From NCBI GenBank assembly GCA_963727625.1, contig CAVSHR010000005.1:640001-704000 (forward strand): DNA of 64,000 nt, given 5' to 3'. Positions 48,939 to 58,294 of the stretch are shown here, one piece after another; the first letter of the stretch is position 1; each line of letters opens with the position of its first letter. The notes beneath the pieces are model-generated. The model did not search any database. It had not been told where the DNA came from and saw only the letters and a list, made by a program, of their open reading frames with translations. The DNA comes from an uncultured delta proteobacterium (GTDB lineage Bacteria > Desulfobacterota > Binatia > UBA9968). The position numbers and the translations under genes were made by a program.

Positions 48939-49036
48939 TATCGCTCCTCAATAACTCAGATTGCGCAGCGAGAAAAGCTAACACCGCGCCGTCGGATCTG
49001 TCAATCAATCCCGCGGTAATCGCTTCAATCGAACAG

Positions 49037-49146
49037 TAGCCTGACCCTTTTCTTGCTTTTGGTCCGACGTAGCAGGAATTTCTCGCAATTGGCCAATGTG
49101 AGACAAAAACCATGACCAAAATCTTGGCTAGCAGTGAGAAAACAGC
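49037..49146 (+). repeat. Direct repeat copy 1 flanking the MNT-HepT module
   Basis: TGGTCCGACGTAGCAGGAATTTCTCGCAATTGGCCAATGTGAGAC...GCAGTGAGAAAACAGC nearly identical to 49940-50026. Confidence 0.92.
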
Positions 49147-49183: not shown

Positions 49184-49513
49184 TCAGAGAATTTTTTCAA
49201 GGTCGGCTTGCAATATCGGCAGGTCTTTGGTGACCGTGCTCCAAACAACATCCGAATCAACGTCGAAATACGCGTGGATCAAACGATTACGCATTCCACT
49301 GATATCTTGCCAGGGAATGGCGCCGTATTGGGTTCGGATTTCGGCCGATACCTTGCCGGCCGCTTCACCGATTATCTCCAGCTCTTTGACCAGGGATAAA
49401 ACCAGCTTGCGATCCGTGTCCAGGTCCGAACGCTGCTTGCCTTGAACGAACTCCAATGCCTCATTAGTCGCGTCCAACATATGTTGGAGCCGTATGCGGT
49501 CATGCCTCTGCAT
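49184..49513 (-). CDS. HepT/DUF86 HEPN ribonuclease toxin
   Basis: [20 protein letters not shown] (RX4HXY). Confidence 0.93.
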
Positions 49514-49811
49514 ACTGGACGGTTGCCGTGGACAAGACTTCCTCTCGGAAATAGCGGCTTAGCTCCTTGGGAGTGCGCAAGTCGACCTTGCGACCTCCCA
49601 GAATGACTGACAGCTCCCGTTCCATACGCGCCAAATCGAGCAAACTCGGCGCAGCGCCAGCCCGGAACTCGACCAGGAGATCGATATCGCTATCTGGCCG
49701 AAAGTCATCTCTCAATGCCGAGCCGAACAACGAAAGCTTTCGAATCCCGTTGCGCTTGCAGAACTCGGCGACCTTATCGGCCGGAAAATCGATGTTCTTC
49801 GTCTTGCTCAT
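49500..49811 (-). CDS. Minimal nucleotidyltransferase (MNT/MntA) antitoxin
   Basis: [28 protein letters not shown]. Confidence 0.93.
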
Positions 49812-49922
49812 TTTCGAACCTTCAAACTGTCGCTGACTATTGCGGCTTGCTCCTGATGATCCTTATACCATCATTTTGCCCGCCTGCCGAGGGTGACAAA
49901 AGCGACGGCTTTAATCGAAAAG

Positions 49923-50026
49923 TAGCCCCTTATCTTGCTTGGTCCGACGTAGCAGGAATTTCTCGCAATTGGCCAATGTGAGACGAAAACCATGACCCAA
50001 ATCATGGCTAGCAGTGAGAAAACAGC
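49923..50026 (+). repeat. Direct repeat copy 2 flanking the MNT-HepT module
   Basis: About 87-bp core with 3 substitutions versus copy 1. Confidence 0.92.
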
Positions 50027-50967: not shown

Positions 50968-51201
50968 CTACGGATTGGCGGCCAGATCACGCACATGAGC
51001 AATTTCTTTTGGCTTGCTGGGACGAACCTGCGTCGCTGTGAGGGTTACGATGGCAATAGTTTCACCGTCCAAGGTCGTGAACTCGACCTCGTAACCTTTG
51101 CCTTTTTCATGGACCAGTACGACGGTGCCGATATCGCCTTGTGCCAGTCCCTGTTCCGGCAAATCACATGTAAGAATCACGTCTTCGAGTTCCTGAATCA
51201 T
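50968..51201 (-). CDS. DUF4926 domain protein (putative antitoxin/immunity)
   Basis: ELEDVILTCDLPEQGLAQGDIGTVV, YEVEF. Confidence 0.85.
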   Translation of the reverse strand: MIQELEDVILTCDLPEQGLAQGDIGTVVLVHEKGKGYEVEFTTLDGETIAIVTLTATQVRPSKPKEIAHVRDLAANP

Positions 51202-52172
51202 GAACGCCTCCTTCTCAGAGGATGAGCCGTGACGAACCTCGGTACGTCTCCATCCCTATTAATACACCGGTTTTGCCAGAGTCGAGAACAGGATGTCAAA
51301 TTGTCGATGACAGAATTACCGTGCGGACGGTTACAGATTACGAAATCTATTCGAGTCGGACCAAGCCATGCCCTTGCTTCGTCAACAGTTTCATCCCAGA
51401 GAAAGGTGTTTTGATGCCTTAGAGCCTCATTTGCAGCGGCAAATTTAAGTCCGTAAGCTTCCGGTGACTCGTGCAGTGCATAACTGCCATTCTTCTCTAT
51501 CACATCGCGATGTGCGGCTTTTGCACCAAGCTGATTCTTGACGCTCTCGACGAATGCCAGGCTTCCAACCGCAATCGCTTCCGTCCAGCATTCTTCGCGG
51601 GCCGCCAAGCCGTTCCCCAGACCTTGCTCGGCCCACTGGCGCTGTGTTGATTGAAAATCTCGGCGATCCGCAAACCCGCTCAACTCGCTCAAACTCTGTA
51701 AATCGATTATGCCGTAACGCTTGGGCGGTTTTTGGATCTCAGAATAACCGCTCTCCTTCCACTGTCCTGGATGATTCATCACCCCGGCACGAACCATGTT
51801 GAGATCGATATAGATCAGACAGCGATGCAGGTGTTCATCGGATTCAATCGCGGTGGCGTGGTAGCGATCCTCCCAGAACGCGCCCCGCTTACCTTTGCGC
51901 TGGTTATATTCCTGGGCAGTGCGGCCGGCGATGAGCTGCATGCTTTCTGCGATGACGTTCGCGCCGGTGTCTTTGACCAAAAGATGGATGTGGTTGGAGG
52001 TAACCATATAATCAAGAACGGAAAGGCCGTAACGCTTCTTGGCTTCGTGCAGCCAATGCAAATAGCGCCGTCGATCGCGCGCAAACTTGAGTAGAAATTT
52101 GCTTTGATGGCATCGGTGAGTGATGTGCCAGATGTGGCCAGGCAGGAAATAACGATTCGCTCGCGGCATCAC
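51198..52172 (-). mobile_element. REP-associated tyrosine (Y1 HUH) transposase, RAYT-like, with a read-through C-terminal tail
   Basis: WHITHRC, YMVTSNHIHLLV (HUH), FWEDRY, YIDLNMVRAG. Confidence 0.9.
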
Positions 52173-52294
52173 TATTTCTTAGAGGTGGCCTTTCGACATC
52201 AAAAAGCCGCCTCTAAGCCTTTAAAAGATGCCTTGTATGCTACCTTCCGTTGGGAAATCAACCATTTCTCTTGGTCCGATTGCCGTACTAAACT

Positions 52295-52329
52295 AAAAAG
52301 GGCGGCCGCTCATCACGGCCGCCCTTTTT
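52295..52329. terminator. Rho-independent terminator (bidirectional)
   Basis: AAAAAGGGCGGCCG-CTCATCA-CGGCCGCCCTTTTT downstream of the secreted protein gene. Confidence 0.85.
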
Positions 52330-52369
52330 AGTTGTTTTCGGCAGCGAGGCTTTTAATAAGACACAGTCT

Positions 52370-54289
52370 TTACCACTTGCCGGCCACGGGAAGATCACCT
52401 GGCTGCCCAAAGCCTGTGATGTATTTATCAACATCGGCGCCATCCCATTGGCCGTTGCCGTTGAAGTCCAAGAACCATTCTCCGGTGGCAGCTCTTAGCA
52501 CGCCGATCTTCGCCGTGCCGTTGCCGTTCCAGTCCCCCACGATCGGCAGATCACCGGGTGAGCCGAACGGACCATAGCACCGGTCGATCGTACAACTATC
52601 GGCCTTTCCGTTGCCGTTGGCGTCCAGCATCCACATACCGGTCTGCGGGGTGAATACACCGATCTGCGCAATCCCCGCGCCATTCCAGTCGCCCACAACG
52701 GGAACATCGCCCGCTTGGCCAAAGGGGCCCAAACAGCGATCCCGGTGGCAACCATCCCATTTGTCGTTACCATTACGATCGAAGTACCAGTAACCCGCTG
52801 TTGTCGTGGTGGTCGTCCTATGTTTTCTCTTCCCCTTGGTCTTGGTGGAGGCGACCAGTGTGTAAACCCCGGGAGAAGTTTTCGGCGCGCCGTCCCAACT
52901 GCCGACTAACGGGGTTTCACGGTTACTCATGTTGTTATTCAAAGCAAAGTTAAAGCAAGTCTCTTGCGAGCATCCTTGCCCAGTCAAATCTCCGTTGGTG
53001 TCGAGCTCCCAACTCTTCTGCGTCGTGTCATAGAGGCCGGGGCTGAGTTGACCCGTACCATTCCAATCCCCAACGAGGGGCAGGTCAGTGTCGGCGCCGA
53101 ATGGTCCGCCGCAAACATCGGTTGTGCACCCCTGCCACAGACCGGTGGGGTTCGTGATCAGATACCAAGCTCCCGTAGCCGGGCGATAGATGCCAACGTT
53201 GGCGACGAGTTTTTTGGTGAAACTCGCCGAGCACGACTTGTTGCCGTTAAGCGTCACCGAACCGTCGAGACAATCCGCATCGCCGCTCCAACCCGAAAAA
53301 TCGGTATCAGTGGCGGGTGTTGCTGTAAGAGCGACGACCGTTCCTTCGGTGAACTCGGCCACGCACTTCGTACCGCAATCGATTCCTGAAGCATGGCTTG
53401 TGATCTGGCCGGTGCCGGTTCCCGTGCGCACGACAGTCAAAGAATAAGTGATTAGTTTGAATGACGCCGTGCAGGTTTTATTGGCACTCATCGTCACCGA
53501 CCCATCCACGCAATCGCTATCCCCAGACCAGCCGACGAAGGTGGATCCGGAAGCCGGTGTCGCCTGCAGAGTAACCGCAACTCCGGTCTGAAATGTCACC
53601 GAGCACGCGCTACCACAGTCGATCCCCGCTGGCGAGCTGACGATTTTACCGTTGCCGCTGCCGGCGCTGGTGACGACGCTCACTGAATTTGTCGTTAACA
53701 AGTAGCCGGTAGAATTGGCAGTGAAAGTTGCGGCGCACGACTTGTTGGCGTTCATCGTGAGCGAACCGTCCAGGCAGTCGCTGTCACCGCTCCAGCCCGC
53801 AAATGAATAATCCCTTGCCGGCACCGCCTGTAAGCTGACCGTCGTGCCGCTCGAGAAATTCGCCACGCATTCCGTGCCGCAACTTATTCCCGACGGGCTG
53901 CTGCTCACCGTGCCGCCGACCTGCGATACGAGAGTCACGCTGTAGGTCGTCACCGGAGGCGGCGGAGTGGTGGCGCAGACCTCGGAGGTGTAAGCCGAGG
54001 TACCGGTGTCGTTAAAGGCATCTACGCGATAGCAATACGTGGTGCTATCGGCAAGGCCGGCGTCACTGTACGAGATCGAATTAACCGGGGCACTGGCAAT
54101 CGCGATAAAAGCCCCGTTGACACCGATCTTACGCTCAATGTTGAATCCGGTTTCGTCATTTGAATTATCCGCCCACGATAATTGCGTCACAGCGGCATTT
54201 GCTTGGTCCTCGGGAATCGCCAGCGCGACCAGCGATGACAGCATGATGAGCGAAAAAACGAGAAGAGCTTTAGAAAAATTGTAACGCAC
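52370..54289 (-). CDS. Secreted/surface protein: FN3 domain, three InlB-B/Flg_new-like repeats, C-terminal GDWNG (FG-GAP-like) repeats
   Basis: Signal peptide; LSWADNSNDETGF...YCYRV (FN3); SSPxGIxCG...FxGWSGDxDC repeats; PxVGDWNG repeats; GGGAGG RBS before GTG 54289. Confidence 0.85.
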   Translation of the reverse strand: MRYNFSKALLVFSLIMLSSLVALAIPEDQANAAVTQLSWADNSNDETGFNIERKIGVNGAFIAIASAPVNSISYSDAGLADSTTYCYRVDAFNDTGTSAYTSEVCATTPPPPVTTYSVTLVSQVGGTVSSSPSGISCGTECVANFSSGTTVSLQAVPARDYSFAGWSGDSDCLDGSLTMNANKSCAATFTANSTGYLLTTNSVSVVTSAGSGNGKIVSSPAGIDCGSACSVTFQTGVAVTLQATPASGSTFVGWSGDSDCVDGSVTMSANKTCTASFKLITYSLTVVRTGTGTGQITSHASGIDCGTKCVAEFTEGTVVALTATPATDTDFSGWSGDADCLDGSVTLNGNKSCSASFTKKLVANVGIYRPATGAWYLITNPTGLWQGCTTDVCGGPFGADTDLPLVGDWNGTGQLSPGLYDTTQKSWELDTNGDLTGQGCSQETCFNFALNNNMSNRETPLVGSWDGAPKTSPGVYTLVASTKTKGKRKHRTTTTTTAGYWYFDRNGNDKWDGCHRDRCLGPFGQAGDVPVVGDWNGAGIAQIGVFTPQTGMWMLDANGNGKADSCTIDRCYGPFGSPGDLPIVGDWNGNGTAKIGVLRAATGEWFLDFNGNGQWDGADVDKYITGFGQPGDLPVAGKW

Positions 54290-54356
54290 GGTGTCCTCCC
54301 AGCTGGGTCTGCGCAATCCGAAATTGCACGAGCTGAGTGGAGCACTGTGCGTCCTT

Positions 54357-54448
54357 TCGGCGGCTCTGCTACCATGTCCTGTCCTTGGGCGACAGGAGTT
54401 AGGTCAGAAGCTTTGCGTCCCAACCTTTCGGTTGGTTTGCCTTTATCG
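54357..54448 (-). ncRNA. Cyclic di-GMP-I (GEMM-I) riboswitch
   Basis: Minus strand AAAGGCAAACCAACC-GAAA-GGTTGGGACGCAAAGC...CCTAA...ATGGTAGCAGAGCCGCC in the 5' UTR of the surface protein gene. Confidence 0.9.
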
Positions 54449-54503
54449 TAGACCTATTAAAAAACCTTTTATAAACTCATAAACTTACCTAAGTATTATT
54501 AAC

Positions 54504-54518
54504 GCAGGATGCGTGCCA
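54504..54518 (-). promoter_or_regulatory. Sigma54 (-24/-12) promoter upstream of the riboswitch
   Basis: TGGCACGCATCCTGC (GG-N10-GC). Confidence 0.7.
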
Positions 54519-54759
54519 CGCGATTGAGCAGAAGAATCATCAATAGATTCACGTCAAAAGCCCATTTTCCAAGATTAAGCGACTGATTTGCCTAGGCTCG
54601 ATTACACTCAATGCGCACCGACCCATTATATCCGCCGCTGCAAAAGGAGTTTTGCCGCGACCGGTACGCGGTTTTACTGGGTTCCATTCCCTCGAATATC
54701 GTCGCGGTGGGTGTTCGGCTGACAATCGGAAATAATAGATTCCTTCGGTCCGACCCAGC

Positions 54760-55968
54760 ATTCAGCGCCAAGAAGCTTCCCCAGGGCAGCAAGATCGCGC
54801 TTGAAGCAACGGGATCATGGTGGTGGTTTGTGGATCTCGCCCAGAAGAGCGGTCATGAAGTCATCATGTCCCATCCCAAGCAGACCAAGGCCATTGCATC
54901 GGCGCGATTGAAGTCGGACAAAGTGGACGCTTTGATGTTAGCGAAGTTGTTGAAGTCGGATTTGCTTCCCACCGTGTGGATTCCACCGGCCAAACAGCGC
55001 TACATTCGAGAGCTTCTCACCCACCGTGCTCCTCTAGTGCGCCAGCGCACTGCGGTGATTAACGAAGTTCACGCGCTTTACTCCAAAAGGAATATGGATC
55101 CCGGAATGACTTTTCACCGAGTCCGTCCGCCGGCCTTTAAGATCGAAGATCTCAGTGGATACGGGCCGCGAATCGTCGAGGAGGACGCAGAGCTTTTGGC
55201 GTTTTTCAACCGTCAGCTCCGGGGATTGGATAGCGAGTTAAAAAAGATTGCCGAAGAGGAGGAGGAATCCAAACGGCTGATGACGATCCCGGGCGTGGGC
55301 CCGCTGAGTGCCGTCGCCGCGAACTGCTGGATTGGCACCATCGACAGATTTTCCAAGGCCAAGAAGCTTTCGAGCTATTTCGGATTGGCACCGAGGGTAC
55401 GACAGAGCGCAGACCGGGAAAGACATGGGCACATCACCAAAGAGGGCAACCGCATGGTGCGATCGCTTATGATCCAGGCGGCTCTCTGGCATGTCCGCAT
55501 CGGCAAGGGCGACGCTCGCAAACATTATCTGGGAGTGCTTAACAGAAGAGGCAAACATATTGCCCGGGTGGCCGCGGCAAACAAACTTCTAGGGATCGTC
55601 TTTCACATGATGAAAGATCGGATCGACTATCAAGAGTTTTTAAAGCGCGGTGGCAACGCGCAGTGAGCCCGCAAAGGGGACTGGTCCACAACGGACCGAT
55701 AGCCTGATTGGGCAGCTGCGCCTCTCCTGTATGAGGAGACCCGCCGGATCAGAGATCATGCGCTGGAAAAAGCGCGAAGAGATGATTGGGTTGCCACCCA
55801 CAAGTTGATCCACTACGCCAGCGGTGAGGCCAGAACCAGGGGATTGCCGAGTTCACTTCGGACGGAGATCGTGCGTTAAAAGGAAACTATGAAGACCGTT
55901 TTATCGAGTGACCAACCACTAAGATAAGGATCTCTGGGTGCTTGACAGGGCCGTCCCGTTTAGAGATG
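54760..55968 (+). mobile_element. IS110-family (IS1111-like) insertion sequence, 5'-truncated; transposase to 55666 plus a 3' non-coding end
   Basis: IALEATG, KSDKVDA (RuvC DEDD), TIPGVG, YFGLAP..RQS, GHITKEGN; first catalytic Asp strand absent; TTGACA near the right end. Confidence 0.9.
55667..55800 (+). ncRNA. Predicted IS110 bridge/seek RNA
   Basis: Two loop modules with guides AAAGGGGAC/GATAGCCTG and AGAGATCA/AGAGATG; two of these match the junction TAGAGA-TG-TCCCCTTT at 55961-55976. Confidence 0.75.
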
Positions 55969-56200
55969 TCCCCTTTTCTCCTCGCAAGATTAAAGACTTG
56001 CCCCGATTACATAGCTCTATACCGAGTTGTTGTGAACGAGCGTAGCGAGTGACCGCGATGCTCACTCACTGATAAGTCAAAACTCAGGCCTGACCCTGTG
56101 ACTCGCTCTTCTTCTCAAAGTCTGACTCTCGTCCCGGACTCAGTGTTTCCTTCCTTTTTTCGGTGCCTTCCATCAAATTGGCATCCCCATGCCCAATAAC

Positions 56201-58294
56201 CTACTCGGCCGCTGCCGGCTCCGCCGCTGGTTCTTGGATCTCCGGGACTTCGAAGATGACGGGAATCCCGGACCTAAATGCTTTTCCAACAGCAATGGCC
56301 TGCCTAAATCGCAGAGCTGGAAGTGCAGCGACCATTTCCGCACCCATGTAGTTCAAGAGAAAATCAGAGCTTGTCTTATCGAACTGCTGAAATGCCACAA
56401 TGGTATTACACTGAGTAAGAACAGTCTTCGAAACGTTTGCGGTCCTCTGTGCGACAACAATGAAACCGACGTTGTACTTGCGTCCTTGTAGGGCAATTTG
56501 ACTGATGCTGTTTACCAACGACTGGGCCTTTCGCTCCTCGACTCCGATGAAGTTCCACTCCGGAATCACCGTGTGCGCTTCCTCTAGCACGACGCACACC
56601 TGTTTTCCGAAGTTCGCGTCCTGTCGAGCAATCTGAAAGAGCCCACGAAAGAACCATTTAGTGTATTCCAGTATGCCCGTGGTGTTTGAAACATCCGGGA
56701 GCTCGAATAGCGCAAGAGGCTTCTCCGACTGCATGAACTCCTTCACGGCTTGGTAAAAGCCATCTTTTAAAACCTCCGTCTTGCCTGCGATGAGTTGCTT
56801 GTTCTGCAGATTAGGGAACTTCTCAAGTTCCGTTGAAAGCGTGTCGATCGCAGCAAAGAGCTCGTCCTTCCGAGCAGTTGGAACGATATTCTCTGGCGCC
56901 AAATCCAGACACTTGCTGCGATATTCATTCGTGAAGTCGACGCAGATCACTTTGGTACCATCCGCGATAATCTTGCGAAGCAGATTGCGACAAAAGACAG
57001 ACTTGCCAGATCCGGTGACTCCAAGAATCGCCGTGTGGTGTGTCACCGCTTGCCGTAGATTGAGCAACACAGGATAGTTTGTGCCGGGAATCGCGCCCAC
57101 CTGCTCCTCTCCCGGGGTAGACACGAATGCGGGTGTTGGTGGCGCCAAGAACAGCGGAACATTTATTTCCGGGACCCAGCCAAATTTCTCGAAGACTAAC
57201 CGGTCGGAATCCCAGATTCCTAGCTGGATAGCTTCCCCAACGATTAGTCCCGCCTCATTCTTCTGCTCCAACGTTTCGATCTCTGTAAGGCCTTGGACGA
57301 TCTGGTACAAAACCTGATTTCCCGACACATGCGCTTCAACGAGATTCCCTTCTGAAACGGGAGTCCTACCCGCGTAGTCAAAACGCACCTTCATAATACT
57401 TGAGTGTTCAATGACAACACCGACAAAACGCCCAAGAAACTCCGGGGCGTTCTGCACATCGATTTTGTATACGACGTTTGTAGCGGTGATCATGCTATGG
57501 GGCTTGTCCCCAAGCGCCCGAAGTATTTGTTCTGTGGCGAGGATCTTGATCCACTGCTGCTCGTTGAGAAGGTAGTTGTCGACGATCATTCCTTTGAAAA
57601 TCCGTCGACCATCGGCCATGGAATAGCGGAACTCGGCAAGATCAAAACGTCGAACGGGAATGTGCTCCGTATAGAGCTTCGCCAAGAAGGTGTTTCGTGA
57701 TTGAACGCCGATTATTTCGCCAATGTCGAGGCCAGTTACGCGTCTCGATCGCCAGGCTGAAAGCACAAAACCTTTCGGGTCGACGAGCAGAATTACGGAC
57801 GCGTAGCCCGCGAGGACGACGAACTGATAAGATTGACTGTCGACGTAGAAGAAGAGCGTTAGCAAAAACAGCCCAAAGAACAAAAACCGTCCGTTACCAA
57901 AAGACACAGAAAACCTCTTTAAAACCGATGACAGGCGGTTCTGCAGCACCATCGAAGATTTATGGGCATCCAGCAGCAGGAGCGCGGTTAGAGATGTGAG
58001 AAGCAGAAAAAGATTGTACCCGAAAAAGATCCAGTACCACAGTCCGAGATTCGAAAGCTGGGACTGTAGCGGCGCCATCAGAAGCAGGATAGCAATCGTA
58101 GAGGCAAGGACATCGGTCGGTGTGGTGAAAAAGTGCTCAAGAAAAAGCGTCACGAACGACAGCATCAGCAGTGCAGTCAGGAGAACTATGGATTGCTCTG
58201 ACGAGGGGAAAACTCTACCAGTACTGACATAGAAGATGAGGAAGAGAAGGGCCGATGCGATGATGAACAGGATGATCCGCTGGGTCTTACTCAC
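56201..58294 (-). CDS. HerA/FtsK-superfamily ATPase (DUF87) with about 6 N-terminal TM helices and HAS-barrel-like domains
   Basis: HTAILGVTGSGKS (Walker A), VVLEEAH (Walker B), QGRKYNVG, AQR, QCNT; hydrophobic first 170 aa. Confidence 0.88.
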   Translation of the reverse strand: MSKTQRIILFIIASALLFLIFYVSTGRVFPSSEQSIVLLTALLMLSFVTLFLEHFFTTPTDVLASTIAILLLMAPLQSQLSNLGLWYWIFFGYNLFLLLTSLTALLLLDAHKSSMVLQNRLSSVLKRFSVSFGNGRFLFFGLFLLTLFFYVDSQSYQFVVLAGYASVILLVDPKGFVLSAWRSRRVTGLDIGEIIGVQSRNTFLAKLYTEHIPVRRFDLAEFRYSMADGRRIFKGMIVDNYLLNEQQWIKILATEQILRALGDKPHSMITATNVVYKIDVQNAPEFLGRFVGVVIEHSSIMKVRFDYAGRTPVSEGNLVEAHVSGNQVLYQIVQGLTEIETLEQKNEAGLIVGEAIQLGIWDSDRLVFEKFGWVPEINVPLFLAPPTPAFVSTPGEEQVGAIPGTNYPVLLNLRQAVTHHTAILGVTGSGKSVFCRNLLRKIIADGTKVICVDFTNEYRSKCLDLAPENIVPTARKDELFAAIDTLSTELEKFPNLQNKQLIAGKTEVLKDGFYQAVKEFMQSEKPLALFELPDVSNTTGILEYTKWFFRGLFQIARQDANFGKQVCVVLEEAHTVIPEWNFIGVEERKAQSLVNSISQIALQGRKYNVGFIVVAQRTANVSKTVLTQCNTIVAFQQFDKTSSDFLLNYMGAEMVAALPALRFRQAIAVGKAFRSGIPVIFEVPEIQEPAAEPAAAE

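Follow-up and report, generated by a model that had tools for sequence, protein, structure and literature searches.

A truncated IS1111-group insertion sequence with a probable bridge RNA end whose guides spell the terminal repeat of a RAYT-like element

The DNA analysed here, hereafter the window, is a stretch of 64,000 nucleotides (nt) from an uncultured delta proteobacterium of the Binatia (GenBank assembly GCA_963727625.1, contig CAVSHR010000005.1, positions 640,001 to 704,000). At 54770-55968 it carries the right-hand 1.2 kb of an insertion sequence (IS) of about 1.4 kb that belongs to the IS1111 group of the IS110 family. The non-coding part that follows its transposase gene (55667-55968) is most probably the bridge RNA, or seekRNA, end of the element, with loop guides that spell out the target (probability roughly 0.88). 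In an intact element, this end would be transcribed into a bridge RNA of about 80 nt, with a long form of about 165 nt, and bound by the DEDD transposase. The 5' guide of the first loop would pair with the top strand of the right target half, and the 3' guide with the bottom strand of the left half plus TG. Recombination would take place at the TG within the consensus target motif AAAGTAGCC-TG-TCCCCTTT, and the IS would home into the ends of a second mobile element. A second loop would probably hold the joined ends of the circular element likewise, the right end as AGAGA-TG and the left end as TG-ATCTC.

The two target guides can be read directly in the window. The 5' guide AAAGGGGAC (55673-55681, plus strand) can pair with the top strand in the right half of the target: its reverse complement is, letter for letter, the flank GTCCCCTTT (55968-55976). 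The 3' guide GATAGCCTG (55698-55706, plus strand) equals the left target half plus the core TG. A stem GGTCC/GGACC (55683-55687 and 55693-55697) lies between them. All strings noted in an earlier, sequence-only reading of this DNA are present where it had placed them, including the exact complement and the identity of AGAGATG with the element end. The matches are short (7-9 nt), and such complementarities could come about by chance or from inverted repeats inside the element. When the non-coding region 55667-55961 was shuffled 20000 times with dinucleotides preserved, the 9-mer complement arose in 56 shuffles and the 7-mer in 1155 (5.8%). Because only 2 of the 20000 shuffles give both, chance does not explain the paired matches; the flanks, which lie outside the element, also change with the guides, and we consider an accidental origin negligible.

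The change of flanks with guides was followed in relatives of the element. A search of one genome per species gave one locus (L007, 95% amino acid (aa) identity, in a metagenome-assembled genome labelled Syntrophobacteraceae), and a metagenome scan gave 24 (L019-L042). Among 40 further genomes from the genus and the order, one held a partial relative (L009, genome G033; 71% identity over residues 2-130); the remaining matches there (29% identity) belong to a different IS110 subfamily and were rejected as relatives. The 3' ends and right flanks were aligned for 21 loci plus two genomic copies, and the left ends and left flanks for 21 loci plus L002, the second copy in the genome of the window. 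Four loci (L036, L040-L042), in which the non-coding end is missing, were excluded from these alignments. A program extracted the guides and flanks, which were then scored.

Across the 21 related loci plus L002, the 5' guide corresponds to the right flank in reverse complement and the 3' guide equals the left flank plus the TG core, and guides and flanks co-vary over three clearly distinct right-guide groups and six left-guide classes. The match to the top strand comes first, 5' of that to the bottom strand, and they share the core G. The 3' guide of the window recurs in 13 related loci, in which the left junction reads AGTAGCC-TG (ten loci), AGCAGCC-TG (L025 and L028) or ACTAGCC-TG (L038); non-core pairing covers five of seven bases (TAGCC) in 11 of these loci and four of seven (AGCC) in L025 and L028. 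The five other left classes have guides and flanks of their own: L032 and L033 combine the guide GACCGAATG with the left flank CCCCGAATG, L034 has GAGCCGATG as guide and GAGCCGATG as flank, and L035 pairs GAGGCAATG with GGGGCAATG. The guide GACAGAATG (L019, L022, L031) stands beside left flanks ending in AAAATG, AGAATG and GAATG, respectively, and the guide GATTAATTG of L009, the sixth class, beside CATTAATTG (eight of nine bases matched, core included).

Left guides match their own flanks at a mean of 4.85 of 7 bases (20 loci), against a mean of 1.59 for 216 cross-class pairs. Right guides match their own flanks at a mean of 7.7 of 9 bases (18 loci), and the three right-guide groups (GGGGAC type, GATAAAAAC and A(C/G)TGGCCCA) reach 6-9 with their own flanks and 2-4.5 when compared across groups. 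Guides unlike those of the window include the right guide of L033 (9/9) and the left guide of L034 (7/7). In L022 and L031, the right guide of the window is combined with a different left guide. The loop-1 segment of the window is identical to that of the full-length L007. This co-variation of guides and flanks shows the target loop, and upholds the view of the sequence-only reading that this is an IS1111-type bridge RNA with readable guides: relatives with other guides lie in other, matching flanks. That reading had further predicted that the lost left junction would read ATAGCC-TG-ATCTCT. The left flanks and ends of relatives proved to be related to this prediction, and ten of the 13 loci with the same 3' guide read AGTAGCC-TG followed by ATCTCA; five of the seven non-core target bases and five of the six end bases had been foreseen correctly, and the rest had not.

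Some loci were set aside in these comparisons. L020 was omitted from the right-flank count because its right end is altered. L039 was rejected as a left-guide case, having ended at an unrelated point with a left boundary unlike its guide. The left guide and left flank of L009 match, but the right target predicted for it was not found with its altered right end, and it was dropped as a right-guide case. In this partial relative (L009:1404-2360), the transposase gene has an internal deletion, and about 16 nt of the left flank recur after the altered right end. Separately, L029 and L030 share a left IS flank and have different right flanks, which suggests rearrangement between IS copies.

The two guides lie in a conserved scaffold. 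In the RNAalifold consensus of 18 sequences, the target-binding module (55667-55713, plus strand) has an outer stem (55667-55671/55709-55713) and an inner hairpin (55682-55687/55693-55698), and both loop-1 guides fall in the internal loop between them. A spacer hairpin of six predicted pairs (55723-55739, plus strand; 55723-55728/55734-55739) follows, and then a second module. Compensatory changes occur in 5 of 39 predicted pairs: one pair of the spacer hairpin (columns 64/72) is UA in 10, GC in 6 and CG in 1 of the 18 sequences, and one pair in the hairpin of the second module (columns 102/109) has two compensatory and seven wobble variants. Folding and covariation, which had been proposed as a check, placed the guides where an internal loop would have them, and the support from co-varying pairs and from the fold of the window sequence itself (z = -1.97) was modest. 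One module with the hairpin spans about 80 nt and both modules about 165 nt, and the lengths published for short (82-96 nt) and long (148-172 nt) seekRNAs (PMC11187229) fit one and two modules, respectively.

Co-variation in sequence cannot separate pairing by RNA from pairing by DNA, and the guides might act as DNA, with single-stranded DNA of the element pairing with the target as in IS200/IS605. We find this very improbable. The protein is a DEDD enzyme of the IS110 family and not of the HUH type, RNA is reported to co-purify with the transposase and to be required in the IS110/IS1111 family (PMC11187229), and the guides sit in a conserved stem-loop scaffold. The pairing partner that we infer is RNA.

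The second module (55751-55784, plus strand) consists of a 5' segment AGAGATCA (55751-55758), a hairpin GCGCT/AGCGC (55760-55764 and 55771-55775) and a 3' segment AGAGATG (55778-55784). Its 5' segment complements, over 7 nt, the start TGATCTC of the left end of full-length relatives, and its 3' segment equals, over 7 nt, the right element end at 55962-55968. In L009, the second loop pairs over 6 nt. We lean towards this loop being a donor-binding loop for the joined ends, which is plausible yet unproven. The donor-type loop had already been proposed in the earlier reading; the matches of 7 + 7 nt to the ends fit such a loop, and co-variation added a single compensatory change. The segments and the element ends are nearly invariant among relatives, and where L034 and L035 both have a T-to-C change in the left end (ATCCCA), the guide follows in L035 and not in L034. 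Since its matches are invariant apart from this one compensatory change, the donor loop is less secure than the target loop. A further candidate for an end-binding segment, GAGATC at 55866-55878, was rejected as it is not conserved among relatives.

Only the first loop might guide, as in a short seekRNA, with the second module serving structure or processing, the transposase reading the inverted repeats, and the 7 + 7 nt matches being a product of palindromic ends. We hold this possible but doubtful. For ISEc11, the 82-nt short seekRNA alone is reported to have supported transposition (PMC11187229). The invariance of the end-matching segments in most relatives leaves no co-variation test, the change in L034 is uncompensated, and RNAalifold pairs the 5' segment of the second module internally, with a downstream UGAUC, rather than leaving it free. 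On the other hand, the second loop matches both ends in the geometry of loop 1, the layout of a hairpin within a loop is the same, and the same AUUGGG follows both 3' guides. The guide change in L035 matches its left-end change, and IS1111 members have been reported with loops complementary to target and donor (PMC11208160). A donor-binding role is the somewhat likelier reading of the second loop, which could serve to test whether the "long seekRNAs" of IS1111 elements carry a donor-binding loop.

The right end also holds a candidate -35 box, TTGACA (55942-55947, plus strand), that is conserved in the alignment of relatives except in L032 and L033. A promoter may be completed only in the circular form, where TTGACA would be followed by a 17-nt spacer and, across the joint, by GATGAT as the -10 box. 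This candidate agrees with the statement that the promoter formed in the circle is the only one in ISEc11 (PMC11187229). Promoter consensus scans of the window element and of L021 found no promoter-like site, and terminator-like sites in the same two elements were no commoner than in shuffled sequences. Four public runs of RNA type were compared with the window, of which they covered only small shares. One contig from a soil metatranscriptome (X17) covers 55589-55815 with two differences, and another from a run that is RNA only by guess (X15) spans 55652-55872; parts of the gene are covered by further contigs. At a depth of 2.5-4, these contigs record presence in RNA libraries only and are a weak hint of transcription.

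Several points weigh against the reading of this end as a bridge RNA. Some loci share flanks (L029/L030 and L025/L028 on the left, L032/L033 on both sides) and many fall in one guide class; because of this, the independent evidence amounts to a handful of classes and not to the number of loci. Matches are imperfect, with five of seven non-core left bases in the main class and lower values in L019, L031 and L039. Co-variation in the helices is thin because the relatives are close, and 9 of 200 shuffled sequences fold at least as well as the window sequence. A search of 54200-56300 against Rfam with E values up to 1 gave no match in the non-coding end. The RNA libraries cover the region by contigs only, at a depth of 2.5-3.6, and DNA carry-over is possible. 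The near-invariance of the second loop, its uncompensated change in L034 and its internal pairing in the RNAalifold consensus count on the same side.

The window element itself is a remnant without its 5' part (plus strand). In alignments to the second genomic copy and to full-length relatives, clear IS homology begins at 54770, with degenerate similarity from about 54743. The open reading frame (ORF) that covers it (351 aa, 54611-55666, plus strand, stop codon at 55664-55666) is a chimera: about 40 N-terminal codons come from a neighbouring repeated segment of 2.56 kb, and the remainder is transposase. As IS homology starts at 54770 with the 2.56-kb segment before it, the IS lacks its left end and roughly the first 35-40 codons. 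The Pfam match to Transposase_20 is complete and that to DEDD_Tnp_IS110 starts only at profile position 44 of 155; the ORF is without the first catalytic Asp. On the other side, 300 nt of non-coding sequence follow the transposase stop codon. They include the right arm of the subterminal inverted repeat (55955-55967, plus strand), which is the only arm kept and whose partner in relatives is ATCTCATAAACGGG at the left end, and the core dinucleotide TG of the right junction (55967-55968, plus strand). The adjoining right half of the interrupted target motif (55969-55976, plus strand) is known from the flanks of relatives and from genomic copies of the motif.

The relatives show what an intact element looks like. 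Full-length copies are about 1.4 kb long, start with TG-ATCTCA(T/C)AAACGG and finish with CCGTTTAGAGA-TG. Their subterminal inverted repeats (left ATCTCATAAACGGG, right CCCGTTTAGAGAT) match with one 1-nt indel, and in L034 the arms are perfect over 11 nt. L007 has a left end of 77 nt before the start codon and a non-coding right end of 302 nt after the stop. Among 18 translated relatives, 17 encode 338-339 aa with a GL-P----S[GA] motif, here GLAP(R/K)V(R/S)QS and then A or G at residue 246; the other (L038) has a reading frame that breaks off at 178 aa. Full-length relatives have the core TG at each junction and unoccupied copies of the motif have it a single time, with no long target duplication. 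These are the published hallmarks of the IS1111 group, described as a transposase of 330-350 aa with a GL-P----S(t)G motif, a long non-coding region 3' of tnp and subterminal inverted repeats (PMC11187229, PMC11208160). Criteria given for the IS110 family and the IS1111 group name subterminal inverted repeats of 7-17 bp, and a DEDD (RuvC-like) domain plus an IS116/IS110/IS902 C-terminal domain.

In the whole genome (6.6 Mb, 15 contigs), sequence of this IS occurs at two places only, the window and contig C2, where C2:2625-3835 is 89% identical to window 54770-55976 over 1213 nt. The second copy (L002) has a 335-aa ORF with both Pfam domains (PF01548, 63.9 bits; PF02371, 84.6 bits) that scores 239.9 bits against NF033542, "IS110 family RNA-guided transposase" (cut-off 140). 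It lacks the left end, as the DNA before its start codon bears no relation to the left ends of relatives. A search for the left end, in which the left guide of L002 was used too, gave a single exact upstream match to TGATCTCT, which was rejected: its flank is wrong, the site falls within an unrelated ORF, and such a match agrees with chance expectation. Since the window copy has lost its left end and first catalytic residue, and the C2 copy its left end, both are immobile relics. For annotation of the genome, both IS copies are accordingly to be treated as such, and the 351-aa ORF of the window as a chimera.

At L002:2822-2835, about 97 nt of left end are missing, exactly from the core TG to a TG where the transposase gene begins, and the left target half at the edge of the deletion is identical to that of L022. 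The deletion was made either by the recombinase or through microhomology. That the RNA-guided recombinase of L002 itself joined its left junction to an internal pseudo-site is very unlikely in our view. L002 keeps its 335-aa ORF and matching guides intact despite the loss. If the deletion was self-made, IS1111 elements can immobilise themselves and leave a stationary gene for a recombinase plus guide that is aimed at the ends of RAYT-type elements.

The relics might still be in use, with the non-coding end of the window copy or the transposase ORF of L002 supplying guide RNA or enzyme in trans. The identity of loop 1 with that of L007, the presence of all domains in the 335-aa ORF of the second copy and the RNA-library contigs over the region would suit such a role. 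There is, however, no full-length partner among the two IS places of the genome and no close relative in the searched genomes of the genus; the remnant diverges like the rest of the element, and no promoter-like site was found upstream. We therefore judge continued use highly unlikely and treat the region as the end of a dead element.

The IS inserts into the terminal inverted repeat (19-21 nt) of a RAYT-like element with a Y1 transposase, 8-9 bp from the outer end of that element. The genome has 2, 5 and 7 sites with 1, 2 and 3 mismatches to the motif, whereas 30 shuffled motifs gave means of 0, 0.07 and 0.77; this makes 14 copies at up to 3 mismatches, where 0.83 were expected. At 4 mismatches the excess is gone (13 sites against 11 in shuffled motifs). 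A site model made from the flanks of L002 finds two genomic sites at up to 2 mismatches and none in 20 shuffles. The motif is only an imperfect palindrome. At one locus (L043), a 148-aa ORF that matches Y1_Tnp (PF01797, 57.4 bits, cut-off 23) is enclosed by two motif sites, which make up inverted arms of 19 nt with 95% complementarity. The best NCBIfam match of this ORF is NF047646, "REP-associated tyrosine transposase", at 45 bits; since this is below the cut-off of 80, we call the element only RAYT-like. Two other motif sites are 21-nt arms around a non-coding element of 258 nt. The DNA inward of the motif falls into two conserved families, the two ends of the RAYT-like element, and about 55 nt separate the IS in the metagenomic locus L028 from a homologue of the L043 gene downstream of it (67% identity over 49 aa).

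An unoccupied, degenerate copy of the motif, ACAGTAGCCTGACCCTTTT, lies in the window at 49033-49051 (plus strand), 3 mismatches from the consensus. The sequence-only reading had seen this near-target and had taken the IS to be programmed against the repeat family of the local island. The near-target is real, but the repeat is not specific to the island: it occurs genome-wide, with 8 of the 14 copies on contig C4, and the 88-nt repeat beside it in the window is merely adjacent.

In L007 (L007:1410-1441), L021 and L039, the right target half is tandemly duplicated in units of 15-17 nt right after the IS. We rejected these duplications as a footprint of the IS, since unoccupied motif copies have similar tandem or low-complexity repeats (C5:480804, C4:1076755); they look like a property of the RAYT-type repeat.

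The mechanism proposed here is established, having been described in 2024, and the value of this case is mainly confirmatory. The window family resembles ISEc11, ISPa11 and ISKpn4 in its 339-aa DEDD transposase, its subterminal inverted repeats and its long downstream non-coding region. It also shares with them two short target matches that overlap at the insertion point, the top-strand match being 5', and close relatives that have been naturally redirected by replacement of guides (Siddiquee et al. 2024, PMC11187229). ISPa11 is alike in targeting a REP sequence (PMC11187229), and both ISPa11 and IS621 were already known to target such sequences. The window family differs from the three elements in its TG core and in its target motif, which in this soil bacterium forms the terminal repeat of a RAYT-like element; the window copy differs from them in being truncated and inactive, and is known here from sequence alone. 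The bridge RNA of IS621, of the IS110 group, is described as having a dinucleotide core for crossover and two internal loops, of which one serves the target and the other the joined ends, each with two guides that read both strands (Durrant et al. 2024, PMC11208160; PDB 8wt6); the window family would share this layout. IS621, by contrast, encodes its RNA upstream of the gene, in the left end, and has the guides in reverse order (PMC11208160). The IS621 protein is a distant relative (phmmer E = 3.3e-15), and the best-scoring part of the alignment is in the C-terminal domain. Alike in habit is an IS1111-family element whose insertions home into the terminal repeat of a Tn3-family transposon, whereas the host here is an element with a Y1 transposase.

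What the present family adds is a demonstration that the guide loops of IS1111 elements can be read from raw sequence, and that the target and the lost end can be predicted almost to the base. It also forms a natural series of reprogramming, in which left and right guides change independently (L022, L031), and is a further case of a mobile element homing into the terminal repeat of another.

Other features of the window surround these elements. The motif at 49033-49051 adjoins the first of two direct repeats of 88 nt (49059-49146 and 49939-50026, 96.6% identity), and a more decayed motif precedes the second. The repeats enclose a pair of genes on the minus strand (49184-49811). Judging by the ORF translations, the pair looks like a toxin-antitoxin module of the HepT/MntA type. 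Taken more broadly, the direct repeats are of about 90-120 nt (49025-49146 and 49913-50026), each after a decayed motif, in a cassette-like layout.

A 324-aa ORF on the minus strand (51198-52172) looks by eye like a Y1/RAYT-type transposase and is 24.6% identical to the L043 protein (tblastn); about 30 tblastn matches to Y1 transposases occur in the genome. This ORF ends beside the left edge of the 2.56-kb segment (52176-54733), whose right edge cuts off the IS. The segment is present three times in the genome at no less than 99.6% identity (also C3:10066-12621 and C2:380123-382579), each copy being followed by unrelated DNA. It encodes a secreted protein of 648 aa with InlB B-repeat domains, plus a leader. 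Upstream of this gene lies a c-di-GMP-I-GGC riboswitch (54355-54450, minus strand; 70.5 bits, gathering score 59), which is the only real Rfam match in 54200-56300 and is outside the IS. At the left edge of the segment, a terminator-like hairpin (about 52300-52325) has the same stem in the window and C3 copies, and its 8-nt loop is inverted between them.

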